From positions 744,001 through 808,000 of the forward strand of contig JASTWF010000098.1 of NCBI GenBank assembly GCA_030390025.1: 64,000 bases of DNA, in the 5' to 3' direction. The position numbers and the translations under genes are program-made. Below the pieces are notes generated by a model. It had not been told where the DNA came from, searched no databases, and saw nothing but the letters and a program-made list of their open reading frames with translations. Shown piece by piece: positions 8,121-62,336 of this stretch (positions are counted from its first letter, which is position 1; every line of letters begins with the position of its first letter). The DNA comes from Squalus acanthias (lineage: Eukaryota).

Positions 8121-8610
8121 TTATACAATAACACACCGTGCGTTACTGGGTATAACGCTCCTGTATATATTATACAATAACACACCGTGCGTTACTGGGT
8201 ATAACGCTCCTGTATATATTATATAATAACACACCGTGCGTTACTGGGTATAACGCTCCTGTATATATATTATATAATAACACACCGTGCGTTACTGGGT
8301 ATAACGCTCCTGTATATATTATATAATAACACACCGTGCGTTACTGGGTATAACGCTCCTGTATATATATTATATAATAACACACCGTGTGTTACTGGGT
8401 ATAACGCTCCTGTATATATTATATAATAACACACCGTGCGTTACTGGGTATAACGCTCCTGTATATATTATATAATAACACACCGTGCGTTACTGGGTAT
8501 AACGCTCCTGTATATATATTATATAATAACACACCGTGTGTTACTGGGTATAACGCTCCTGTATATATTATATAATAACACACCGTGCGTTACTGGGTAT
8601 AACGCTCCTG
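8121..8610. repeat. Minisatellite, 49/51-bp unit, 10 copies
   Basis: acacaccgtgcgttactgggtataacgctcctg(ta)n ttatataata recurring at 8131, 8180, 8229, 8280 ... 8578; length varies by one TA. Confidence 0.95.
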
Positions 8611-9478
8611 AGTATAACAGTGTTGTTGGTTTTATGCTCCTGTTCACTGTACATTATGAAACCGCCAGAATTCTTTTACATGACACAGCAGCACATCACA
8701 CTGTGGTCACACCACAACATGAAAGTGAGCCCGGCACTCTGTGGGGCTGTCGGTAGCCACCAGGATGATCTCGCAATCAGAGGAAGCCATCAAATGTTTT
8801 CCCAAAACACCAAGGCGCTTGATTTAAAGCAGCATCGGGGCCGGCTGGAGAGCGAGCGAGGAGACACTGGGCCAGCCAGGTGCTTCTCTCAGCCCTTGTT
8901 GTGAGGTGCCCCCATGTTGTCCTGGTCGAAGCAGCTGGGAGGATATGAAAAGTCCCAGATGAAAGTTGAGTGCATCCAGTCGCTTCAATGGTGTTTGATA
9001 TTTTTTTTTAAAGAAAAGATGTGAGAGAGAAAGTCTGGGGGGAGGGAGGGAATTCGACACCTTAACAATTTCAACAAAACACTCTCACTGCGAGCGGGCC
9101 TCTTTATTTTTGCAAAGCTGTTTTTTGTCCTCAGAAACAATGTTTCAAATACTTTATGCCACACACGCACCTTTCAAAACAAGCCTGTGTCTATCTGTCT
9201 GACGACATCTGTAAAGAATCCTCTATAAATCTGAACAAGAGGAGCTGGATCAAACTATGTGCGTGTGCACGTTGGTGGAAGGTGACACAGTGCACTCGTA
9301 TGCAGTGCCTCCAAGAGGCAGGGCACGGGTCCAGGAGACCAAGCATCTGGCTCGGGCAAGGGGTATTGCGAGCAAGACCATTCGATACGTGCGAGAGAGA
9401 GGGATAGAGAAAGAGTGAGAGAGAGCAAGTGAGAGCGAGAAAGGCAGCGAGCGAAACAGCGAGTGAGAACGAAGAGAA

Positions 9479-9757
9479 AAAGAAAGGCTTGCATTTCTGT
9501 AGCGCCTTTCACGATCTCAGGACGTCCCAAAGCTCTTCGCAGTCAATGAAGTACTTTTGAAGCGTAGTCACTGTTGTAATGTAGGAAACGCGGCAGCCAA
9601 TTTGCGCACAGCAAGCTCCCACAAACAGCAATGTGATAATGACCAGATAATCTGTTTTAGTGATGTTGCTTGAGGGATTAAATATTGGCCAGGACACCGG
9701 GGAGAACTCCCCTGCTCTTCTTCAAAATAGTGCCGTGGGATCTTTTGCGTCCATCTG
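9479..9757 (-). mobile_element. DeuSINE/SacSINE1-type SINE, 3' half (split by the 3.4-kb insertion)
   Basis: Reverse complement of tgctgtttgtgggagcttgctgtgcgcaaattggctgcc...aaaggcgcta..aaatgcaag; continues at 13204. Confidence 0.9.
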
Positions 9758-10112
9758 TCGGGAACGGTAGCCTAGTGGTTATGTTACTGGGCTAGTAATC
9801 CAGAGGCCTGGACTAATGATCCGGAGACAGGAGTTCAAATCCCACCACAGCAGCTGGGGAATTTAAATTCAGTTAATTAATTAAATCTGCAAGAAAAAAA
9901 GCAGCTAGTATCAAACTATCGGATTGTCGTGGAAACCCATCTGGTTCACTAATGTCCTTTAGGGAAGGAAATCTGCCGTCCTTACCCGGTCTGGCCTATA
10001 TGTGACTCCAGACTCACATCAATGTGGTTGACTCTTAACTGCCCTCTGAAATGGCCGAGCAAACCACTCAGTAGCAAAAAAACACGATGAAAAACAATAA
10101 TAATAAAACCGG

Positions 10113-13100
10113 ATGGACCACTCGGCACCGGCTACAGACACAACAATGGCACTCCCAGCCCAGTCGACTCTGCAAAGTCCTCCTCACCAACATCTGGAAA
10201 CTTGTGCCAAAATTGGGAGAGCTGTCCTACAGCCTGACATAGTCATAGTCACAGAATCATACCTATCAGCCAATGTTCCAAACTCCTCCATCACCAGGAG
10301 TGGCGGCACAGTGGTATACAGTCGGGAAGGAGTGGCCCTGGGAGTCCTCAACATTGACTCCGGACCTCATGAAGTCTCATGGCTTCAGGTCAAGCATGGG
10401 CAAGGAAACCTCCTGCTGATTACCACCTACTGCCCTCCCTCAGCTGATGAATTAGTACTTCTCCATGTAGAACACCACTTGGAAGAAGCACTGAGAGTAG
10501 CAAGATCACAGAATGTACTCTGGGTGGAGGACGTCAATGTCTATCACCAAGAGTGGCTCGGTAGCACCACTACTGACCGAGTCCTGAAGGACATAACTGC
10601 CAGTCTGGGCCTGCGACAGGTGGTGAGAGAATCAACACGAGGGAAAAACCTACTTGACCTTGTCCTCACCAATCTACCTGTCACAGATGCATCTGTCCAT
10701 GACAGTATTGGTAGCAGTTACCACTGCACAGTCATTGTGGAGACGAAGTCCCGTCTTCACACTGAGGACACCCTCCATCGTGTTGTGTGGCACTGCCACC
10801 GTGCTAAATGGGATAGATTCAGAACAGATCTAGCAGCTCAAAACTGGGCATCTATGAGGTGCTGTGGGCCATCAGCAGCAGCAGAATTGTATTCCACCAC
10901 AATCTGTAACCTCATGACCCGGCATATCCCTCACTCTACCATTACCATCAAGCCAGGGGACCAACCCTGGTTCAATAAGGAGTGTGGAAGAGCATGCCAG
11001 GAGCAGGACCAGGCATACCTAAAAATGAGGTGCCAACCTGGGGAAGCTGCAACACAGGACTACATGCATGCTAAAAAGCAGAAGCAACATGCTATAGACA
11101 GGGCTAGGCGATCCCACAATCAACGGATCAGTTCAAAGCACTGCCACATCCATCCGTGAATGGTGATGGACCATTAAACAACTAACGGGAGGAGGAGGCT
11201 CCATGAATATCCGCATCCTCAATGATGGTGGAGCCCAGCACGTGAGTGCAAAAGACCAAGCTGAAGCGTTTGCAACCATCTTCAGCCAGAAGTGCCAAGT
11301 GGATGATCCATATCGGCCTCCTCCTGAGGTCCCCACCATCACAGAAGCCAGTCTTCAGCCAATTCGATTCATTCCACTAACAACTTGTATTTATATAGCA
11401 CCTTTAATGTAGTAAAACATCCCAAGGCGCTGCACAGGAGTATTTTAAGACAAAAAATTTGACACCGATCCACATAAGGATAAATTAGGACAGGTGACCA
11501 AAAGCTTGGTCAAAGAGGTAGGTTTTTAGGAGCGAGGTGGAAAGGTTTAGGCAGGGAATTCCAGAGCTTAGGGCCTAGGCAACAGAAGGCACGTACCAAA
11601 GGTTGAGCGATTATAATCAGGGATCCTCTGTGGATACAGCAAAGGCTATGGGCCCCGACAACATCCCGGCTGTCGTGCTGAAAACTTGTGCTCCAGAACT
11701 AGCTGCGCCTCGAGCCAAGCTGTTCCAGTACAGCTATAACACTGGCATCTATCCGACAATGTGGAAAACTGCTCAGGTATGTCCTGTCCACAAAAAGCAG
11801 GACAAATCCAATCCAGCCAATTACCGCCCATCAGTCTACTCTCAATCATCAGCAAAGTGATGGAAGGTGTCGTCGACAGTGCGATCAAGCAGCACTTACT
11901 TACCAATAACCTGCTCACTGATGCCCAGTTTGGGTTCCGCCAAGACCACTCGGCTCCTGACCTCATTGCAGCCTTGGTCCAAACATGGACAAAACAGCTG
12001 AATTCCAGAGGCGAGGTGAGAGTGACTGCCCTTGACATCAGGCAGCAGTTGACAGAGTGTGGCATCAAGGAGCCCTAGTAAACTGAAGTCAATGGGAATC
12101 GGGGGGGGTGGGGGGGGGGGGGAACTCTCCACTGGCTGGAGTCATACCTAGTACAAAGGAAGCTGGTTGTGGTGGTTGGATGTCAATCATCACAGCCCCA
12201 CAACATCGCTGCAGGAGTTCCTCGGGGCAGTGTCCTAGGCCCAACCATCTTCAACTGCTTCATCAATGACCTTCCCTCCATCATAAGGTCAGAAGTGGGG
12301 ACGTTCGCTGATGACTGCAGTGTTCAGTGCCATTTGCAACTCCTCAGATAATGAAGCAGTCCTTGCCCGCATGCAGAAAAACCTGGACAACATTCAGGCC
12401 TGGGCTGATAAGTGGCAGGTAACATTCGCGCCACACAAGTGCCAGGCAATAACTATCTCCAAAAAGCGAGCGTCAAACCACCTCCCCTTGACATTCAATG
12501 GCATTACCATCGCCGAATCCTCCACCATCAATATCCTGGAGGTCACCATTGACCAGAAACTTAACTAGACCAGCCACATAAATACTGTGGCAACAAGAGC
12601 AGGTCGGAGGCTAGGTATTCTGCGGCGAGTGTCTCGTCTCACCTGACTCCCTAAAGCCTTTCCTCCATCTACAAGGCACAAGTAAGGAATGTGATGGAAT
12701 TCTCTCCATTTGCCTGGATGACTGCAGCTCCAACAACACTCAAGATGCTCGACACCATCCAAGACAAAGCAGCCTGTTTGATTGGCACCCCATCCACCAC
12801 CTTAAACATTCACTCCCTCCACCACCGGCGCACTGTGGCTGCAGTGTGTAACATCTACAAGATGCACTACAGCAACTCGCCAAGGCATCTTCGGCAGCAC
12901 CTCCCAAACCCACGACCTCTACCACCTAGAAGGACAAGGGCAGCCGGCGCATGGGAACACCACCACCTCCAAGTTCCCCTCCAAGTCACACAACATTCTG
13001 AAGTATTTTGCCATTCCTTCATCGTCGCTGGGTCAAAATCCTGGACTTTCCTCCCTCACAGCATTGTGGGAGTACCTTCATCACACGGATTGCAGCGGTT

Positions 13101-13140
13101 CAAGAAGGCGGCTCACCACCACCTTCTGAAGGGCAACTAG
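10113..13140 (+). pseudogene. Disrupted APE endonuclease-reverse transcriptase ORF of the tRNA-headed LINE
   Basis: PDIVIVTESYL, TTYCPPS, TRGKNLLDLVLTN, KAMGPDNIP, NPANYRP/ISLLSIISKVME, QFGFRQ, GVP(R)GSVLGPTIF, FADD, WADKWQVTFAPHKCQ over several frames; frameshifts, a poly-G tract and an L2 insertion. Confidence 0.9.
11379..11624 (-). mobile_element. L2-type 3' end nested inside the LINE ORF
   Basis: Same sequence as 2993-3260 (aacaacttgtatttatatagc...gaattccagagcttagggcc). Confidence 0.85.
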
Positions 13141-13203
13141 GGATGGGCAATAAATACTGGCCTTGATAGCGACGCCCACATCCCATGAACGAATGAAAGA
13201 AAA

Positions 13204-13393
13204 CCCGAGGGCAGACGGGGCCTCGGTTTAACGTCTCGTCCGAAAGACGACACCTCCAACAGTGCAGCACTCCCTCAGCACTGCGCTGGATTGTCAGCCT
13301 GGATTTTGTGCTCAAATCTCTGGAATGGGACTTGAACCCACGACTTTCTGACTCGGAGGAGAGAGTGCTGCCCACTGAGCCATGGCTGACACT
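13204..13393 (-). mobile_element. DeuSINE/SacSINE1-type SINE, 5' half (tRNA head)
   Basis: Reverse complement of gtcagccatggctcagtgggcagcactct...ggttcaagtccc; continuous with 9479-9757. Confidence 0.9.
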
Positions 13394-20174: not shown

Positions 20175-20636
20175 AGCTAGCATAGTGGTTATGTTACTGG
20201 GCTAGTAATCCAGAGGCCTGGACTAATGATCCGGAGACGTGAGTTCAAATCCCACCATGGCAGTTGGGGAATTTAAATTCAGTTAATTAAATAAATTTGG
20301 AATAAATAAAAAGCTAGTATCGGTAATAGTGACCATGAAACTACCAGATTGTCGTAAAAACCCATCTGGTTTACTAATGTCTTTTAGGGAAGGAAACTTG
20401 TCGTCCTTACTCGGTCTAGCCTATGTGACTCCAGACCCACAGGAATGTGGCTGACTCTTAACAGCCCTCTGAAATGGCCCAGCGAGACACTCAAGTCATA
20501 TTAAAAAAACTGCTATGATGGACTGCAGTGGTTCACGAAGGCGGCTCACCACTACCTACTCAAGGGCAATTAGGGATGGGCAATAAATGCCGGCCTTGCC
20601 AGAGACGCCCACATTCCGTGAATGAACAAAACAAAA
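20175..20636 (+). mobile_element. Short tRNA-headed SINE sharing both 5' head and 3' tail with the 9758-13203 LINE
   Basis: 20178-20496 aligns with 9768-10072; 20518-20636 aligns with about 13085-13203. Confidence 0.9.
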
Positions 20637-25589: not shown

Positions 25590-26431
25590 CAGGTATAGCA
25601 CGGGTTAGATACAGAGTAAAGCTCCCTCTACACTGTCCCATCAAACACTCCCAGGGCAGGTACAGCACGGGTTAGATACAGAGTAAAGCTCCCTCTACAC
25701 TGTCCCATCAAACACTCCCAGGGCAGGTACAGCACGGGTTAGATACAGAGTAAAGCTCCCTCTACACTGTCCCATCAAACACTCTCAGGGCAGGTACAGC
25801 ACGGGTTAGATACAGAGTAAAGCTCCCCCTACACTGTCCCATCAAACACTCCCAGGGCAGGTACAGCACGGGTTAGATACAGAGTAAAGCTCCCCCTACA
25901 CTGTCCCATCAAAAACTCCCAGGGCAGGTACAGCACGGGTTAGATACAGAGTAAAGCTCCCTCTACACTGTCCCAACAAACACTCCCAGGGCAGGTACAG
26001 CATGGGTTAGATACAGGAAACTTTCGTTTATCCGGCACCCAAATATCCGGAATTCTCGCTTAACCGGCAAAAATCAGGTAAGTTTTATTGTACAGACAAG
26101 ACCCCGATTCTGACCTTTCGCCCCCACGAAAGGGGGGTCAACTTTCTTCCGACTCGGACCTGTCGCCGCCACGGAGGAAAAAGCCGGAGTCTCGTTTATT
26201 TTCCCTCTCCGGGTCCCAATTGTTAAGGCTGTGGCCGTGTACGGGTCTCTCGTACCTTGGTAAGTATACCTCTCTGTAATCCGGCACTTTCGATCAACCG
26301 GCACCACGCCGGTCCCGTCGGTGCCGGATAAACGAAAGTTTCCTGTACAGAGTAAAGCTCCCTCTACACTGTCCCATCAAACACTCCCAGGGCAGGTACA
26401 GCACGGGTTAGATACAGAGTAAAGCTCCCTC
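25590..26431. repeat. Minisatellite, 67-bp unit, about 7.5 copies, interrupted by a MITE
   Basis: gggcaggtacagcacgggttagatacagagtaaagctccctctacactgtcccatcaaacactccca; period 67 (25611 to 25678). Confidence 0.95.
26014..26345. mobile_element. Tc1/mariner (pogo/Tigger-like) MITE, 332 bp
   Basis: Perfect 26-bp TIR CAGGAAACTTTCGTTTATCCGGCACC, TA duplications at 26012-13 and 26346-47. Confidence 0.92.
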
Positions 26432-31355: not shown

Positions 31356-32891
31356 TGGTATAATGAGACTCATTGTGGAACATGGAGACCCCGAGTGTAC
31401 ACACACACACTCACTCACTTACACTTACCTTTCAGCAGAGGCCTGTGGCGAGCAATCAGGAGCGGAAACGACATTTTCCCTTTCCTAACTCAAGGTGCTG
31501 AGGCTAATTGTGACCCCTCCAATGGCCCTGGTTGTGTTATCGAACTCAGCACAAACCAGGGCCAGCACCCGAGTTCCTCCTGAATTAAATGGTTCAGTTA
31601 CCCACTGGGTAAGCAGGCCGAGCCATCTGGGGTAGGCGAGTTGGGAGTAAGGAGGAGTAGCAATCCATAATTTCTGTACGGAAAAAACTGCACTTGTGAA
31701 TAAACTACACTTGTCAGAGCTCAAATGCTAGAGAAAAAAAATCCAAACAAGTCAATACAGATCAAGCACACAGGTTCAATCAAGGAATGGGTTAACCCCA
31801 ATCGAGTGACTGGATCCATGGTTAAGGGCAGGGGGGGATTGGAATTAGCCATTCTCCAGTTGGTACACTGTGCTCTTCAGCAGGCCTCTGGAGCCCAGAA
31901 TCATTTATTACACGACACAATACAGGGGTGGAGCAGTTTGCACAATCCCACACAGGCTGTGGATCACCTGAAAGGACCCCCTCCCCAGTCCCAGCTACTA
32001 CCTGCTGTGTTCCCACCACCTAGCTCCTTTCACTCTGCCCCTGGGGGACCATTACACTCACGTACACACTAATAGCTTTTAGTTTCCATTCACACGAAAC
32101 CTGCTACGCTAAAATTAGCCTGCAGACCACCAACACTGAGCCCTCCCCAACCCCAACCTTTCAGCGCAAGGGTTTATGCCTTCCTCTCCGTTCCCTCCCC
32201 TCACCCCGAGGCTCAGATAAAGGCTAGTTTTCAATCTCAAAACCTTATTTTAGTACAAGAGAAAAGGACTGAAATGTTCAAATTTCTATACAATTTCCGA
32301 TCAAAGAAGGACGCCCCCTTTGATATCTGGACAGCGATGTCCTTGGCCCAGTTTTTTTTAAGCTTCATTTGCTGATTGGCATACAGTACATTTCACCATA
32401 TGAAGGCAGAAGCAGTGGCTCATGAGCTAGTACCTGAAGTATGTCAACAACTTTTAAAATAGGCAAATAAAAAGGGTGCGATTTGTATATCGTGTAACAT
32501 CACAAAGGTCCTGGTTATTCAGCAGGGTAAGGGTCACTCACTGTAACTATAGAGAGTCGCTGTTTATTCAGGGTAAGGGTCACTCACTGTGTAACTGTAC
32601 AGAGTCACTGTTTATTCAGGGTAAGGGTCACTCACTGTGTAACTGTACAGAGTCACTGTTTATTCAGGGTAAGGGTCACTCACTGTGTAACTGTACAGAG
32701 TCACTGTTTATTCAGGGTAAGGGTCACTCACTGTGTAACTGTACAGAGTCACTGTTTATTCAGGGTAAGGGTCACTCACTGTGTAACTGTACAGAGTCAC
32801 TGTTTATTCAGGGTAAGGGTCACTCACTGTGTAACTGTACAGAGTCACTGTTTATTCAGGGTAAGGGTCATTCACTGTGTAACTGTACAGA

Positions 32892-33127
32892 TGTGGAGAT
32901 GCCGGCGTTGGACTGGGGTGGACAAAAATGAGAAGTCGCACAACACCAGGTTATAGTCCAACAGATTTATTTAATTTTACAAGCTTTCGAAGCAGTTCGC
33001 TCCTTCGTCAGGTAAGTTAGCAATGAGTTGCTAACTTACCTGACGAAGGAGCGAACTGCTTCGAAAGCTTGTAAAATTAAATAAATCTGTTGGACTATAA
33101 CCTGGTGTTGTGCGACTTCTCATTTTT
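32892..33127. mobile_element. Penelope-derived palindromic non-autonomous element
   Basis: Perfect 100-bp inverted arms 32924-33023 / 33028-33127, 4-nt loop, 32-bp asymmetric extension, 11-bp TSD aactgtacaga. Confidence 0.85.
33036..33074 (+). ncRNA. Putative minimal type I hammerhead ribozyme (mirror copy on minus strand, 32977-33015)
   Basis: TTAC-CTGACGA-a-GGAGC gaact GCTTC-GAAA-GCTT-GTAA: stem I, core, stem II, palindromic stem III. Confidence 0.7.
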
Positions 33128-33782
33128 AACTGTACAGAGTCACTGTTTTATCAGGGTAAGGGTCACACACTAACTATACAGAGTCACTGTTTATTCAGGG
33201 TAAGGGTCACTCACTGTAACTGTACAGAGTCACTGTTTATTCAGGGTAAGGGTCATTCACTGTGTAACTGTACAGAGTCACTGTTTTATCAGGGTAAGGG
33301 TCACACACTAACTATACAGAGTCACTGTTTATTCAGGGTAAGGGTCACTCACTGTAACTGTACAGAGTCACTGTTTATTCAGGGTAAGGGTCATTCACTG
33401 TGTAACTGTACAGAGTCACTGTTTATTCAGGGTAAGGGTCACTCACTGTAACTGTACAGAGTCACTGTTTATTCAGGGTAAGGGTCACTCACTGTGTAAC
33501 TGTACAGAGTCACTGTTTTATCAGGGTAAGGGTCACACACTAACTATACAGAGTCACTGTTTATTCAGGGTAAGGGTCATTCACTGTGTAACTGTACAGA
33601 GTCACAGTTTTATCAGGGTAAGGGTCACACACTAACTATACAGAGTCACTGTTTATTTAGGGTAAGGGTCACTCACTGTGTAACTGTACAGAGTCACTGT
33701 TTATTCAGGGTAAGGGTCATTCACTGTGTAACTGTACAGAGTCACTGTTTATTCAGGGTAAGGGTTACTCACTATGTAACTA

Positions 33783-37690: not shown

Positions 37691-37876
37691 CTCACTCACT
37701 GTGTTACTGTACAGAGCTCCTGCTTATTCACCAGGATATTGGTACCTGTTGTGCAACTGTTAACAGTTAGACTTGGAAATTCCAGGGTCAGTTAGACCAT
37801 AAATGAATAATTTCAGTGTGTCACACCGAGCCCCGTCAGTTACCCAATCTACACCGTGTGTGAGATGTCAGTATAT

Positions 37877-38473
37877 CACACCTAGACCCGTCAGTTATCC
37901 CATTTACACAGTGAGTCACACCTAGACCCGTCAGTTATCCTATTTACACAGTGAGTCACACCTAGACCCGTCAGTTATCCTATTTACACAGTGAGTCACA
38001 CCTAGACCCGTCAGTTATCCTATTTACACAGTGAGTCACACCTAGACCCGTCAGTTATCCTATTTACACAGTGAGTCACACCTAGACCCGTCAGTTATCC
38101 TATTTACACAGTGAGTCACACCTAGACCCGTCAGTTATCCCATTTACACAGTGAGTCACACCTAGACCCGTCAGTTATCCTATTTACACAGTGAGTCACA
38201 CCTAGACCCGTCAGTTATCCCATTTACACAGTGAGTCACACCTAGACCCGTCAGTTATCCCATTTACACAGTGAGTCACACCTAGACCCGTCAGTTATCC
38301 CATTTACACAGTGAGTCACACCTAGACCCGTCAGTTATCCTATTTACACAGTGAGTCACACCTAGACCCGTCAGTTATCCTATTTACACAGTGAGTCACA
38401 CCTAGACCCGTCAGTTATCCTATTTACACAGTGAGTCACACCTAGACCCGTCAGTTATCCTATTTACACAGTG
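37877..38473. repeat. Minisatellite, 40-bp unit, about 15 copies, with degenerate flanks to about 39785
   Basis: cacctagacccgtcagttatcc(t/c)atttacacagtgagtca. Confidence 0.95.
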
Positions 38474-38548
38474 TGTGAGATGTCAGTGTGTTACACCGAG
38501 ACCCATCAGTTATTCTAGTTATACAGTCCGTCACACCAGACCTGTCAG

Positions 38549-42596: not shown

Positions 42597-43258
42597 TCGC
42601 TGACACAGGATACAAAAGAGGAAAAGTTCTTTCCCCCCGCCCCTCCCCAAACCTACCCTTCCCTCCTCCCCCTCAACCCTATTACTCTCGATTACTCAAA
42701 TTATTTATAGCCCACTGATCCCCGCACCGAGAGAGGAAAAAAAAATCTTAAACCGCAATTAAGTCAGCTTTTGACGAACGGGAAAGGGTTTTTTGTGTAA
42801 GTAGGCGCTTTGTGAACCAGCGATATTATAGTGGCAAAGGTTAGATCAGCGGCAGGTATTGGGCCCTGCCAGCATCTCTGGCAGTCATTAGAACATGTCA
42901 CGTCCTATTGCCGCTGTTCACATTTTCGGTAACCTAATCATTTGACATCATTATTTGAGGTACCTCAGTGGCATGGAATTACTGCCAGAGGTCACACAAA
43001 CACAAAGCCATCCCTAGCGGGACAGCATCTGCCACAGTACCAACATTGTTAGGTCCAAACCCAGCCCGCCGTTTGGAAGTTAACGGATTCCCTTCACTCC
43101 TCAATCAAAGATGCTCCGTCTCTCTGCACCCAACCCCCTCCCCCTTCTTCCTTTCCCACTGTCTCTCTCTCTCTGCATATTCCTCAAGTCCATCGTCCCA
43201 CATTCAAGCGCATAACCAGCGGAGGAGATATTTGTTATCACAAAATCGCTGAGGCGAA

Positions 43259-45155
43259 GGGTCCCGGGCCCACAGTCTAGCACGCTAACCAGGGTCCGGG
43301 CCCACAGTGCAGCATGCTACCCAGGGTCCGGGCCCACAGTGCCGCACGCTACCCAGGGTCCGGGCCCCACAGTGCAGCATGCTACCCAGGGTCCGGGCCC
43401 ACAGTGTAGCACGCTAACCAGGGTCCGGGCCCACAGTGCCGCACGCTACCCAGGGTCTGGGCCCCACAGTGCAGCATGCTACCCAGGGTCCGGGCCCACA
43501 GTGCAGCACGCTACCCAGGGTCTGGGCCCACAGTCTAGCACGCTACCCAGGGTCCGGGCCCACAGTCTAGCACGCTACCCAGGGTCCCAGGCCCACAGGG
43601 CAGCATGCTACCCAGGGTCCGGGCCCACAGTCTAGCACGCTACCCAGGGTCCGGGCCCACAGTCTAGCACGCCACCCAGGGTCCGGGCCCACAGTCTAGC
43701 ACGCTACCCAGGGTCCCAGGCCCACAGGGCAGCATGCTACCCAGGGTCTGGGCCCACAGTGCCGCACGCTACCCAGGGTCTGGGCCCACAGTGCAGCATG
43801 CTACCCAGGGTCCGGGCCCACAGTCTAGCACGCTACCCAGGGTCCGGGCCCACAGTCTAGCACGCTACCCAGGGTCCCAGGCCCACAGGGCAGCATGCTA
43901 CCCAGGGTCCCAGGCCCACAGGGCAGCACGCTACCCAGGGTCTGGGCCCACAGGGCAGCACGCTACCCAGGGTCCCAGGCCCACAGGGCAGCATGCTACC
44001 CAGGGTCCCAGGCCCACAGGGCAGCATGCTACCCAGGGTCCCAGGCCCACAGGGCAGCATGCTACCCAGGGTCCCAGGCCCACAGGGCAGCATGCTACCC
44101 AGGGTCCCAGGCCCACAGGGCAGCATGCTACCCAGGGTCCCGGGCCCACAGGGCAGCACGCTACCCAGGGTCTGGGCCCACAGGGCAGCACGCTACCCAG
44201 GGTCCCAGGCCCACAGGGCAGCACGCTACCCAGGGTCTGGGCCCACAGGGCAGCACGCTACCCAGGGTCCGGGTCCCACAGGGCAGCACGCTACCCAGGG
44301 TCTGGGCCCACAGTCTAGCACGCTACCCAGGGTCTGGGCCCCACAGTGCAGCACGCTACCCAGGGTCTGGGCCCACAGTCTAGCTCGCTACCCAGGGTCC
44401 CGGGCCCACAGTCTAGCTCGCTACCCAGGGTCTGGGCCCACAGTGCAGCACGCTACCCAGGGTCCGGGCCCACAGTGCAGCACGCTACCCAGGGTCCGGG
44501 CCCACAGTGCAGCACGCTACCCAGGGTCCGGGCCCACAGTGCAGCACGCTACCCAGGGTCCGGGCCCACAGTCTAGCTCGCTACCCAGGGTCCGGGCCCA
44601 CAGTCTAGCTCGCTAACCAGGGTCTGGGCCCACAGTGCAGCACACTACCTAGGGTCTGGGCCCACAGTGCAGCATGCTACCCAGGGTCCGGGCCCACAGT
44701 GCAGCACGCTACCCAGGGTCCGGGCCCACAATCTAGCACGCTAACCAGGGTCCGGGCCCACAGTCTAGCATGCTACCCAGGGTCTGGGCCCACAGTGCAG
44801 CATGCTACCCAGGGTCCGGGCCCACAGTGCAGCACGCTACCCAGGGTCCGGGCCCACAGTGCAGCATGCTACCCAGGGTCTGGGCCCACAGTGCAGCACG
44901 CTACCCAGGGTCTGGGCCCACAATCTAGCACGCTAACCAGGGTCCGGGCCCACAGTGCAGCACGCTACCCAGGGTCTGGGCCCACAGTCTAGCACGCTAC
45001 CCAGGGTCTGGGCCCACAGTCTAGCACGCTACCCAGGGTCTGGGCCCACAGTCTACCACGCTACCCAGGGTCTGGGCCCACAGTCTACCACGCTACCCAG
45101 GGTCCGGGCCCACAGTCTAGCACGCTACCCAGGGTCCGGGCCCACAGTCTAGCAC
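43259..45155. repeat. GC-rich minisatellite, 32/33-bp unit, about 58 copies
   Basis: gggcccacagt(gc/ct)agcacgctacccagggtc(c/t); block of the 33-bp ccaggcccacagggcagc variant in the middle. Confidence 0.97.
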
Positions 45156-45340
45156 ACACTGGTGGATAGGCAACGCCTAATTGGGTTTTATAAGACAACA
45201 GATTGGGGGACTGAGGCAGTGTCGTCCAATAGAAATTGCTGGCTAGCCGCAGGTGTAGCCATGGCGACCCCCTTTTAGCCACATGCGCTAATTTTAGTAG
45301 AGAACACCTTGCACACTCTACAGGTAAACGTACTTCACAC

Positions 45341-47470: not shown

Positions 47471-48247
47471 AGAATTTTAAACACAAGGAGCAAAAAGGGA
47501 AGTTGGGGGTAACTTTTTCACCCAAAGGCTGATCGAGTTATAGAATAAAGTTCCCAGGGAAGGACATTGAAGCAGACAGTGTAAAAGGGGTCATTAGATA
47601 ATCAGATATATTTCTGGGAGAGAGAAATGATTGGATTCTTTAAATATACAAAAGCGATTACAAATAAACCTCAACCTCAAGCTGCTCTGAAATGTTAAAT
47701 ACCTGCATCCAAACCAATAGGATCTTCAAAAAAAACCCTCTCATCTGGTCCTGAGGGCACAATTCAAACTGATACTGTAGCCTCCCTGCCTTTTAAACTT
47801 TATGGATGAAGAGACTTGAAGTGCCTAAAAGGCAGACCCTCATAACAAAGTCATGTGAGGGCAGCATTCTCAGCGCTGAATTGCTCTTTTACTGGTTACA
47901 TTACAAATAACACTCGATACAGATCTCTCCTGTCCGCAGAGATGAAAACACAAGGCTGATAGCACAATGCCCGATGAGGGTACTCTGCCCCTTTGATATA
48001 TTCCAACGCGTTACTCAGTGACGCAGGAAGACCGGCTGAGAGATGCTAGACAGAGCATCGAGGGGACACTCATTCTCCACAAGTTTTGTCATTTTTTTCG
48101 TGCAATTACAGTACCAGGCATCAAACCCTCTACTGGATAGACAGCGGCAAGTTATTGCTTGATTTAAAGCGCCAGTAATTATCAATTCTGTAACACAACT
48201 AATCAACACACATCACGACAGAGAATATGATTTGTAATTTTACATCC

Positions 48248-49031
48248 AAACCCCTCGATTAGATTCCAGCCTGTAACTCACTCCCGGGTATCTGTTATTC
48301 TATATATAAACCCCCCGAACCCCTCGATTAGATTCCAGCCTGTAACTCACTCCCGGGTATCCGTTATTCTATATATAAACCCCCCCGAACCCCTCGATTA
48401 GATTCCAGCCTGTAACTCACTCCCGGGTATCTGTTATTCTATATATAAACCCCCCGAACCCCTCGATTAGATTTCAGCCTGTAACTCACTCCCGGGTATC
48501 CGTTATTCTATATATAAACCCCGCCGAACCGCTCGATTAGATTCCAGCCTGTAACTCACTCCCGGGTATCCGTTATTCTATATATAAACCCCGCCGAACC
48601 CCTCGATTAGATTCCAGCCTGTAACTCACTCCCGGGTATCTGTTATTCTATATATAAACCCCCCGAACCCCTCGATTAGATTTCAGCCTGTAACTCACTC
48701 CCGGGTATCCGTTATTCTATATATAAACCCCGCCGAACCCCTCGATTAGATTCCAGCCTGTAACTCACTCCCGGGTATCCGTTATTCTATATATAAACCC
48801 CCCGAACCCCTCGATTAGATTCCAGCCTGTAACTCACTCCCGGGTATCTGTTATTCTATATATAAACCCTCAGAACCTCTCGATTAGACTCAAGCCTGTA
48901 ACTCACTCCCGGGTATCTGTTATTCTATAAAAAAAACCCCGAACCCCTCGATTAGATTCCAGCCTGTAACTCACTCCCGGGTATCCGTTATTCTATATAT
49001 AAACCCCCCGAACCCCTCGATTAGATTCCAG
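48248..49031. repeat. Minisatellite, 69/70-bp unit, about 11 copies
   Basis: aacccctcgattagattccagcctgtaactcactcccgggtat(c/t)cgttattctatatataaaccccccg-type unit. Confidence 0.97.
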
Positions 49032-50709
49032 CAATAAGTCTCCTGTGTAGAGCTCCTCTGATGCACTGCCTGTACTTCTCTGCAATCTATTCCTGTCGTA
49101 CCAGAATGGATTGTTATTTTGCTCCTATTTTTCCAGGAAAACCCTTCTTTTTCCTGTCTCTTTATCCCCCTCCCTAGGAGGGGCTCACTCGTTGCTCCCA
49201 TTCCAATAATCCCAGTCACCGTCCTGTGGCTCTTCCAAGTGCCGTGTCGTGCTGGGGTACAGATTGGCTTGGAGGACTGGTTTGGGGGGGGTGGGGGGGC
49301 TTGATTTACCCACCCCTCACCGAACAGCCTGCCAACACCCACTGTCTGGCTTTGCACGGGAAGAACAGTCTATTGGGCGAGGTATCGAGGAGAGCATGGT
49401 GCTTGATACAAGTCAGTGCCATCAGGAGAGAGAGACAGAGAGAGAGGGGAGAGGAAAACCAGAGTGAGACATGAAGAGAAAAATCGCACCCTCCAACACA
49501 CATACAAGCCCCACACACAGTAAGCACTACACAAGACGATGCATTTGAACTATCACCTATCAGCGCCTGCCTCAAGTCAGTAACCCAGAGCCCGAGCTGT
49601 GAGCTACCGCACTGTAATGCACGGCGGAACATCACAGGACCCTCTCTCTTCCCCTCATGCCTTCCTAATTGCTTCCTATGCTCGGCATATGTCTTTCTAA
49701 ATGGAAACAAGGTGTCAGGGCACAGAGGTTCCATCGCTCCCATAAATCTTCAGGGCAATCCGTCAACCCCGGCAGGCTCGGCGCGTCAGAGGAAATGGGC
49801 TTCCTCTCTCCATTAGCCGCCTGTGTCTGCAGACACTGCCACTTCTACTGTAATGTAATATAGGAGGAGGAGGAGTCTCTGGTTAGTTAACCCTTCCAAG
49901 CCCAGTGTCAAATATTAGCAAAAGTCAATGCCATATATATATTTTAACATATTTTCACAGAAGGCAACTTCAAAAAATGTTTAAACTGGCTTGCAATTTC
50001 GTAGTTCCTTTTTTTCCCCCCATTGCACAGAAGCTGTATCACAGGTGTCCCACACCCAAAGCAGGTGGAACAGAGCCAGTCTCAATCTCACAGAGTCTAA
50101 TGAAAATTTCCATTCGCTTCACCCTCAATCTGTCCTACTGCCTCTTCCACTCCCCCGTCGTTCCCCCCCCGCGTCCTCCTCCCCCTCCATCTTTCACTAA
50201 AATGAACTGCAGGCAGAGGGAAGTATGGATGACCTCTCACAGCTCCACTCCAGTGTGCCTCCTGCTGGTCACTCACAGAGAGGCACTGATTATGACGACG
50301 TCACCACACCCCGCAGGACTGAAACCAGGGCCGCCTGAAAGCACACCCTCTCCGCCCCGTCCCTCCAACTTCAGTGCTCGGCAACAGAAACTTCACCCCA
50401 AAACTCTATTGGTGAGCCCCAATGCTCACAGGTAGAAACCCTCCTGCCCTAACAGACCAAGACATAAACAGACAATGTTCATATAGATCCTCTGCAAATG
50501 CTGAGCCATTTCAAAAAACACCCTCTTTATGCAGGACCCAAAGAGATCAGCCTAGATTTTCCGATTTTAACACCATGAGTTCCCACAGACTACACCAGCA
50601 TTAATGCAATGCCGGTCGGAAAATCAAGACCTGTTTCTGAGCGGCCTCAATGTCCGAAAGTTTCAGTAAAATGTGCAACTAAATGTGCCTACGTAACAAG
50701 AGTTCACTG

Positions 50710-57624: not shown

Positions 57625-57945
57625 ACCTTAATTAGATTCCAGTCTGTAACTCACTCCCGGGTATCTGTTATTCTATATATAAACCCCCTGAACCCCTCGA
57701 TTAGATTCCAGTCTGTAACTCACTCCCGGGTATCTGTTATTCTATATATAAACCCCCCGAACCCCTCGATTAGATTCCAGCCTGTAACTCACTCCCGGGT
57801 ATCTGTTATTCTATACATAAACCCCCCAAACCCCTCAATTAGATTCCAGTCTGTAACTCACTCCCGGGTATCTGTTATTCTATATATAAACCCCCCAACC
57901 CCTCGATTAGATTGCAGCCTGTAACTCACTCCCGGGTATCTGTTA
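57625..57945. repeat. 69-bp minisatellite family, about 4.7 copies
   Basis: Same unit and orientation as 48248-49031. Confidence 0.95.
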
Positions 57946-58169
57946 TAGTGTCACAAGTGACTCCCTTGACGGAAGTCATCAGTGTGCTTCACACTGTGAC
58001 ACCAACACCGAATTAAATCTGGTAGCAACTTGTAGCCAATGGGAGGTAGCGACGTGTACATGTATATATGTGTTATATACACACACACATATTATATATA
58101 TATATAACTCAACAGCAAAGTGCATGTGTTCTACTAATCCAAATTAGTTTGATTTTCAAATTAACACTT

Positions 58170-62012: not shown

Positions 62013-62336
62013 ACAGGAGTTCAAATCCCACCAAGGGCAGTTTGAGAATTTGAATTCAGTTTAAAAAATCTGGAAATAAAAAGCTGGTCTCAGAAGCCAT
62101 CAGGTTGTCGTAAAAACCCAACTGGTTCACTAATGTCCTTTAGGGAAGGAAACCTGCCGTCCTTACCCGGTCTGGACCGATATATGACGCCAGTCCCACA
62201 CCAACGTGGTTGACTCTTCACCGCCCTCTGTGGTGACATAGCAAGACACTCGGTTTGTATCAAATCACTACCAGCGGTTCAAGAAGAAAGCCCACCACCA
62301 CCTTCTCAGGGCAACTAGGGATGGGGCAATAAATGT
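62013..62336 (+). mobile_element. Third, more diverged copy of the short SINE related to the tRNA-headed LINE
   Basis: ggagttcaaatcccacc...ctggttcactaatgtcctttagggaaggaaa...gcggttcaagaag...agggcaactagggatggggcaataaat. Confidence 0.85.

Follow-up and report, generated by a model that had tools for sequence, protein, structure and literature searches.

Introduction

According to the textbook division, LINEs give rise to coding RNAs made by Pol II, and SINEs are non-coding parasites transcribed by Pol III. In bipartite SINEs, a tRNA head is combined with both ends of a LINE of the RTE or Vingi type (PMC5786205). Vertebrate Pol III terminates at runs of four or more T. It also stops at TCTTT, TATTT and TGTTT with efficiencies of 50%, 42% and 20%, respectively, and elongation of T runs together with shortening of the tail is a known effect of ageing (PMC8466645). 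Transcripts of Pol III carry no m7G cap and, for Alu, the Pol III form of the RNA does not need the ORF1 protein, whereas the Pol II form does (PMC2666806). For R2 and L1Tc, uncapped RNA is thought to be translated through leaders formed by HDV-like ribozymes (PMC6765202). Type 6 IRESs support factorless initiation at non-AUG codons (PMC13211661, PMC13273307, PMC12221177). The occurrence of type 6-like IRESs in LINEs has been suggested, not shown, in a review where a 'pol II (or pol III)' promoter is also briefly evoked for non-LTR leaders (PMC3894237).

Zenon elements, devoid of ORF1 and ending with an A tail, were reported in 2026 in five sharks and rays (PMC13343379, supplement table 2). 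The elasmobranch set comprises SquAca_Zenon-1 and the Zenon-1 elements labelled CarCar, RhiTyp, ScyCan and HypSab. In the main text of that article, no mention is made of tRNA, promoter, polymerase, start codon or methionine. Lepidopteran derivatives of Zenon are described as having neither a tRNA head nor a Pol III promoter (PMC6740152).

The element copy and its family

The window analysed here is a stretch of 64,000 nucleotides from the 3.7-Gb genome of the shark Squalus acanthias. It contains a dead non-LTR retrotransposon copy, which sits within a tRNA-headed SINE, as well as two short derivatives of the same element (Table 1). The interrupted host SINE is presumably SacSINE1/Deu-like. 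In the window copy, the reading frame is broken by frameshifts, stops and a later insertion, and the endonuclease and reverse transcriptase domains are spread over several broken frames. The clade label of the insertion, which we take to be L2-type, comes from its C-terminus and tail. An AATAAA lies about 45 nt upstream of the A tail of the element, and two further AATAAA motifs are found inside the leader. In the 13 copies examined, there was no target-site duplication longer than 6 nt.

Table 1. Features of the element copy and of its neighbourhood (positions in the window).
Feature	Position	Strand	Remark
Non-LTR retrotransposon copy (Zenon LINE, dead)	9760..13203	+	start = 9760
tRNA-like head	9760..9842	+	Rfam tRNA match in intact copy
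A box, type-2 Pol III promoter (putative)	9768..9778	+	
Anticodon-arm-like hairpin, loop with AGT, tRNA-Thr-like	9787..9803	+	
B box (putative)	9831..9842	+	
Conserved leader body, candidate cap-independent initiation element	9913..10076	+	
Predicted leader hairpins	9962-9986, 9988-10014, 10014-10027, 10046-10071	+	folding
In-frame leader ATG	10051-10053	+	in-frame stops separate it from the ORF
Single EN+RT reading frame	10078..13140	+	Pfam Exo_endo_phos_2 and RVT_1
Later insertion, 3′ end of L2-type LINE, antisense	11379..11624	-	
Lone T4	13006..13009	+	post-insertion mutation
Short 3′ UTR and decayed A tail	13141..13203	+	AATAAA at 13149-13154
tRNA-headed SINE, 3′ part, interrupted by the element	9461..9757	-	
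tRNA-headed SINE, 5′ part, same interrupted SINE	13203..13392	-	
Short internally deleted derivative: head, leader and 3′ end	20178..20636	+	
Second short derivative, 5′-truncated	62013..62335	+	

Copies of the family were collected through the 5′ end (39 copies) and through protein similarity (40 copies). A first majority sequence was derived from 79 copies, including that of the window, one near-duplicate having been removed. For an older subfamily, two overlapping sets of 30 and 40 copies were fetched by means of a subfamily motif, and the majority was built from those 23 of 40 loci having at least 900 nt of the element. Copies are 92-97% identical to their own majority in the first set and 90-94% in the older one. 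The two majorities are not independent of each other because they differ at only 74 positions, with 41 synonymous and 23 replacement changes. Genome-wide, 3060 exact matches to the tail followed by A were counted; in three raw DNA runs, the numbers of matching reads were 19, 0 and 0.

Judging from its sequence, the family is the elasmobranch Zenon-1 LINE of the CR1 group, abundant in this shark. The first 400 nt published for SquAca_Zenon-1 match the family majority, by eye, except for a few subfamily letters, and the published length of 3314 is that of the majority. The element has one ORF with an APE endonuclease and a reverse transcriptase (RT), no ORF1, and a poly(A) tail. As every Zenon is devoid of ORF1, this absence is no specific mark of Pol III. 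Named close matches at the protein level come from a shark only, and the closest protein relatives (P0002-P0022) stand at 37-42%. The viral contig collection contained no relative. As regards the published starts of 400 nt, compared by eye, all seven of elasmobranch Zenons (five species) have the head and the leader and no T4; those of two hagfish and one coelacanth Zenon have T4 and no head. The family is thus a known one with an undescribed odd design. The head, the terminator deficit and the missing AUG are not described in the main text of PMC13343379, and searches of open-access full text yielded no description of a tRNA-headed autonomous LINE of the Pol III type.

A tRNA-like head copied together with the reading frame

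In an intact copy, the head matches the Rfam tRNA model with an E value of 0.03 and 22.6 bits, under the gathering score of 29, and ARAGORN called no tRNA gene at this place. Its loop is probably tRNA-Thr-like, an identity derived from the AGT of the anticodon loop. In the B box, non-CpG divergence among copies affects 11 of 609 letters. Both sides of the hairpin formed by the variable arm of the head change between species (by eye). Copies starting at family position 1-2 make up 34 of the 39 selected by the head and 7 of the 40 selected by the protein. The remaining ones are 5′-truncated at scattered points. The flanks of the copies look unrelated.

Five head variants are linked to variants of the ORF, some of them more than 2 kb off and up to 3 kb. 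Variants common to at least 8 copies have pN/pS values of 0.27 (transitions) and 0.40 (transversions) and include no stops; for private variants, pN/pS is 0.94-0.98. As read from this variation among copies, the ORF was under purifying selection, and several successive source lineages passed on the head and the ORF as a single unit. Since the head is linked to the ORF and the shared variants are selected, headed elements made their own protein. The short forms arose by internal deletion: head and leader are retained, and the junction with the 3′ end differs from one form to another.

At its 3′ end, the family majority has an AATAAA and no terminal Pol III terminator. The commonest state of the tail is one T before the A tail (52 of 125 tails). 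The idea of a built-in terminator made of T runs before the A tail came from 307 exact T5 tails, versus 3060 with a single T. It was abandoned because background T(n)A(m) tracts are T-richer than the tails of the element and because T elongation is known to go with tail shortening in ageing copies.

Scarcity of oligo-T on the sense strand

A first-pass annotation of this DNA had reported, outside the insertion, a single T4 and no T5 on the sense strand of the element, together with frequent A4+ runs. Recounting 9758-13203 bore this out. On the + strand, there are three T4+ runs, at 11443-11446, 11523-11527 (a T5) and 13006-13009; the first two fall within the insertion, at 11379-11624, which had rightly been said to contain both T4 and T5. 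The A4+ runs number 21, of which 18 are outside the insertion. On the other hand, the insertion had been set against the element as a contrast, for which it is poorly suited. Because the L2 fragment is antisense, T runs on the + strand there do not offer an equivalent control; on its own sense strand, it also has T4+ runs, 3 in 246 nt. The T4 at 13006-13009 is private to the window copy, since it requires an A>T change, found in 1 of 69 covering copies, and a CpG decay. Internal T4 is missing from 28 of 47 near-full copies. Neither subfamily majority (79 and 23 older copies) has a T4+ run, as the annotation expected of the consensus, or a TVTTT, and both have seven T3 runs per 3.3 kb.

For the window copy alone, the T4 count has a P value of 0.045 under base shuffling and of 0.36 under dinucleotide shuffling. 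For the family majority, T4 = 0 has a P value of 0.017-0.021 under base shuffling and 0.034 with composition-matched codons; synonymous-codon and dinucleotide shuffling give 0.11 and 0.20. These two last nulls retain part of the TT deficit under test. The comparison with codon-shuffled controls proposed in the annotation therefore places the T4 count inside the shuffle distribution (P 0.11), and the use of TTT versus TTC for Phe, also proposed, is not significant alone (3 vs 15, P 0.066). One may then consider that no selection against terminators has acted, a biased mutation process or a preference for certain codons having simply made the strand poor in T and rich in C and A; the head would be the remnant of a captured SINE. 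The values obtained with the most conservative shuffles agree with this explanation, as do the T content of the family strand, 19.6%, and the depletion of TA, as strong as that of TT (0.65 vs 0.71).

What makes this explanation very improbable is the wider oligo-T signal. With protein and codon usage fixed, 74 TT are observed versus 91 expected, none of 3000 shuffles being as low, and T3 runs number 5 versus 11.2 expected (P 0.007). The A, C and G analogues of the depleted T motifs show no depletion, AA, CC and GG being at 0.98-1.22, and the antisense strand has 20 terminators. For T4 or TVTTT, a test defined after the sequence had been inspected, 0 occurrences are observed versus 3.5, 5.3 and 7.0 expected under three nulls (P 0.016, 0.0023 and 0.0003). 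Moreover, a mere captured remnant would account neither for the linkage of the head to the ORF nor for the paired changes between species (by eye). The annotation had called the T depletion suggestive rather than decisive. This caution is justified for T4 alone, which is a weak signal; the wider oligo-T signal falls outside the shuffles.

Phe makes up 1.85% of the family protein, under all 97 long homologues (minimum 2.1%). Loss of conserved Phe was considered and rejected: 13 of 16 are retained, inside the range of the homologues, and the deficit is at variable sites.

Comparison with other elements

Among 80 related metagenome loci, the 45 with an ORF of at least 600 aa were used, and the other 35, with shorter ORFs, were left aside. 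T4 occurs in each of the 45 (2-44 per ORF); the annotation had suggested such a comparison with related RT elements. The controls have a higher T content than the family (0.21-0.37 vs 0.19-0.20), and most of them are remote, with 22-37% identity for the 45 relatives. Scaled for composition, the P value for T4 = 0 is 0.012-0.018. A crude pattern detected no A/B box pair in these 45 loci, many contigs of which may miss the 5′ end. The observed-to-expected ratio of TT is 0.71 in the family versus a minimum of 0.81 in the 45 relatives; it is 1.06-1.19 in seven CR1-like ORFs and at least 0.84 in 20 L2 3′ pieces. For T3, the ratio is 0.35 versus a control minimum of 0.66, and the TTT share is 0.17 versus a control minimum of 0.45.

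The seven CR1-like ORFs are from the same genome and were picked by appearance among 19 non-family ORFs. They have 3-13 T4 each, and their longest terminator-free stretch is 896 nt. With a T content of 21-22%, CR1-like ORFs have 5-13 T4 per 2.6-2.7 kb, which again speaks against T-poverty as the sole cause. T4 is present in every one of the 20 L2 3′ pieces (320-1428 nt, 50% GC). Three of the 19 non-family long ORFs of the genome are without T4, each shorter than 1 kb. The majority of the host SINE, presumed to be a Pol III unit, has no internal T4 and no T3 deficit (8 vs 6.2), which goes against a simple Pol III reading.

A reading frame without AUG behind a conserved leader

From stop to stop, the EN+RT frame has 969-973 codons in the family, and its first in-frame Met is at about codon 285, beyond the endonuclease. 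Of 46 length changes just behind the leader, 31 leave the frame intact, versus 6 of 27 inside the leader; comparison of the copies thus shows a frame that is coding from just behind the leader. The N-terminus of the frame resembles the basic N-termini of Met-starting homologues, one of which has MATKK versus ATK in the family. An ATG occurs at the fourth codon in 8 of 65 copies, including that of the window. This ATG is read as the decay of ACG, given that it falls on a CpG site and that ACA stands there in the older subfamily. Other starts were considered and rejected. A TTG is in frame in the older subfamily but is then followed by TAA in the younger one. A uORF opened by an ATG of the +1 frame would need a -1 shift, for which there is no conserved slippery site; in one subfamily, that frame ends with a stop where the ORF begins, and the positions spared are second codon positions of the main frame, which also disfavours such a uORF.

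The leader body has shared variants at 2 of 138 sites versus 26 of 448 fourfold sites (Fisher P 0.039). About 5-7 differences in ~148 nt separate its consensus in shark from that in ray (by eye). One pair of the first hairpin is A-U, G-U or G-C in different species (by eye). A predicted helix closing the whole leader was discarded because the consensus sequences of the ray and of the whale shark, examined by eye, disrupt it. No HDV-like ribozyme was recognized at the 5′ end, either by Rfam or by a simple descriptor, which gave 0 candidates, and no known ribozyme model matched the element. Rfam IRES models had no match to the leader at E values up to 5-10.

Two candidate pairings between the leader and the start of the frame may be drawn. 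In the first one, the 7-nt anticodon-like loop of the last hairpin would pair with the Ala codon over 3-4 bp. In the second one, GGUUG would pair over 4-5 bp with bases ending in the Thr codon. This second pairing would leave GCU as the first codon, presumably as for CrPV. Neither pairing has support from covariation: that among the 109 leader copies is dominated by descent, and five species, compared by eye, show too little change. It may be imagined that the uncapped 3.3-kb RNA is translated, across sharks and rays, through an IRES like that of dicistroviruses, one that mimics a tRNA, needs few factors and starts at GCU, a bold proposal which we regard as doubtful.

In nearly all copies, the in-frame ATG of the leader is followed by one stop in the older subfamily or by two in the younger one. 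This arrangement brings in another explanation, in which Pol II would make a capped coding RNA, by means of a promoter overlapping the head or by read-through, the Pol III promoter serving mainly the short deleted forms. Ribosomes would enter the frame either by AUG-independent reinitiation once the uORF of the leader has been translated or, starting at the in-frame ATG, by leaky read-through, and the poverty in oligo-T would result from the avoidance of U-rich decay, splicing or cleavage signals. AUG-independent reinitiation is known for L1 ORF2, and CAA after a stop is a leaky context. The ATG has a strong context, 27 nt upstream of the frame, and CAA comes after both stops in most cases. 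Met and T4 are present in headless relatives, which makes Pol II the ancestral state. The position of the AATAAA before the A tail agrees with Pol II, though two more are present within the leader, and a deficit of TpT, under-used in frog L2, is on record (10.1101/788562). However, a second stop arose after the ATG in the younger lineage, whose ORF was still selected, and the published whale-shark consensus is one base shorter between ATG and frame (by eye). In addition, Pol II would not explain why copies uniformly start at the first G of the tRNA head, why the B box is so well preserved and why terminators are lacking on one strand only. Transcription of the coding RNA by Pol II is therefore rather unlikely in our opinion.

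A probable Pol III-transcribed LINE

The best explanation, with a probability of about 0.65, is that the element was an autonomous LINE transcribed by Pol III, with predicted cap- and AUG-independent translation. The Pol III reading is supported by the zero terminators, the depletion specific to T and to one strand, the linked head and the missing AUG. In such a mechanism, TFIIIC would bind the A and B boxes of the head. Pol III would start at the first G, run over 3.3 kb past the A tail and stop at the first T run of the flank, as for Alu. Source copies gaining a T4 or a TVTTT would lose their 3′ end and die out, and the strand would stay clean. Indeed, as a terminator would remove the 3′ end needed for priming, only clean sources would leave offspring. 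The RNA would have no cap, which would fit the AUG-less ORF and the strongly constrained leader. The latter would recruit ribosomes near the Thr-Ala-Thr codons, with initiation at a non-AUG codon. The protein would then prime reverse transcription at the A tail without the help of an ORF1 protein. Finally, internally deleted copies keeping head, leader and tail would behave as SINEs.

Selection for Pol III read-through, as put forward in the first-pass annotation, is thus kept as the best explanation, although the T4 count failed the codon-shuffle test. Its companion claim, cap-independent translation, fits the missing AUG start and is retained as a prediction.

Significance and comparison with known systems

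If this explanation is true, a LINE on a SINE promoter would erase the LINE/SINE split, and the products of Pol III in a vertebrate would include a protein-coding RNA of 3.3 kb. A direct route to SINEs would be the deletion of a headed LINE. The 350-nt leader makes testable the translation of an uncapped, AUG-less cellular RNA as well as the existence of dicistrovirus-like IRESs in non-LTR elements. A compact Pol III promoter joined to a cap-independent leader would moreover be of practical use as a part for expression. Were the IRES proposal true in addition, there would be a dicistrovirus-type IRES in a nuclear animal genome, within an autonomous vertebrate retrotransposon, and a natural Pol III messenger.

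Zenon-1 resembles the T+ SINEs B2, Dip and Ves by its Pol III-type head, by the AATAAA near its 3′ end and by the T runs before the shortened A tails of old copies (PMC8466645). It differs from them in that its tail T runs are not above the genomic background. With R2 and L1Tc, it shares the organization of a non-LTR element with a single ORF and a structured leader, the structure being predicted in Zenon-1. However, the ribozyme frees R2 and L1Tc from Pol I or polycistronic transcripts, whereas Zenon-1 has its own tRNA-type promoter and no HDV-like fold was found in it.

The likeness to type 6 IRESs lies in about 150 nt of conserved and, by prediction, structured RNA directly before the AUG-less frame. 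The Thr-Ala-Thr start of this frame presumably echoes the Ala-Thr start of CrPV ORF2. Type 6 IRESs have been described so far in viruses, whereas the leader of Zenon-1 has no Rfam match.

Zenon-1 is also close to SINE2 elements, with a tRNA head containing A and B boxes, no internal terminator and a LINE-type tail. Full-length Zenon-1 is different, with its 3.3 kb and a selected EN+RT of its own; only its deleted forms are short, non-coding and non-autonomous, as SINE2 elements are by definition. In contrast to bipartite SINEs, the head belongs here to an autonomous element, and the short forms are deletions of it with mixed breakpoints.

Retention of the leader in deleted forms

The short, non-coding deleted forms of Zenon-1 (window 20178-20636 and 62013-62335; genomic loci L192-L260) retain the whole leader, and their 5′ breakpoints are clustered at the border between the leader and the ORF. 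Because of this retention and of the position of the breakpoints, the leader may have an additional role in mobilisation, for instance in bringing the RNA to ribosomes. Three hairpins of the head and leader carry similar 7-nt loops (see the table), which suggests that the anticodon arm was duplicated repeatedly. Further downstream, in the RT region (12101-12122), a G6 run of the family is expanded to G8-T-G13 in the window copy.

Other copies and repeats

Two young CR1-like elements have uninterrupted frames of 909 (L056) and 873 codons (L043), and one of the two sits within a copy of the Zenon-1 family. At loci L243-L245 and L036/L037, the copies look identical and have flanks in common, i.e., the Zenon-1 elements there are parts of larger segmental or tandem duplications. 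A 251-codon open frame with repeated HATQGPRPTGQ units overlaps the GC-rich array at 43258-45157, one of the many tandem arrays of the window.

Positions of hairpins, CR1-like elements and tandem arrays
Feature	Position	Strand	Remark
Anticodon arm hairpin	window 9787-9803		similar 7-nt loop
Extra arm hairpin, variable region	window 9809-9823		similar 7-nt loop
Last leader hairpin	window 10046-10071		similar 7-nt loop
Young CR1-like element	L056:1926-4652	+	uninterrupted frame
Young CR1-like element	L043:1-2619	-	uninterrupted frame
Tandem arrays	window 43258-45157, 8121-8616, 25590-26016, 32492-33781, 37814-38548, 48246-49032, 57631-57946

Protein relatives and their starts

Zenon-1 pieces with 81-86% identity are found inside two annotated shark gene models (P0001 and P0026), one of which bears the name aldo-keto reductase; the repeat sequence has probably been annotated there as exons. 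Among the closest protein relatives, P0004, P0006, P0007, P0010 and P0012 have their called start within the first strand of the endonuclease (V/M-NIRG), which looks as though an upstream AUG were missing in them too.
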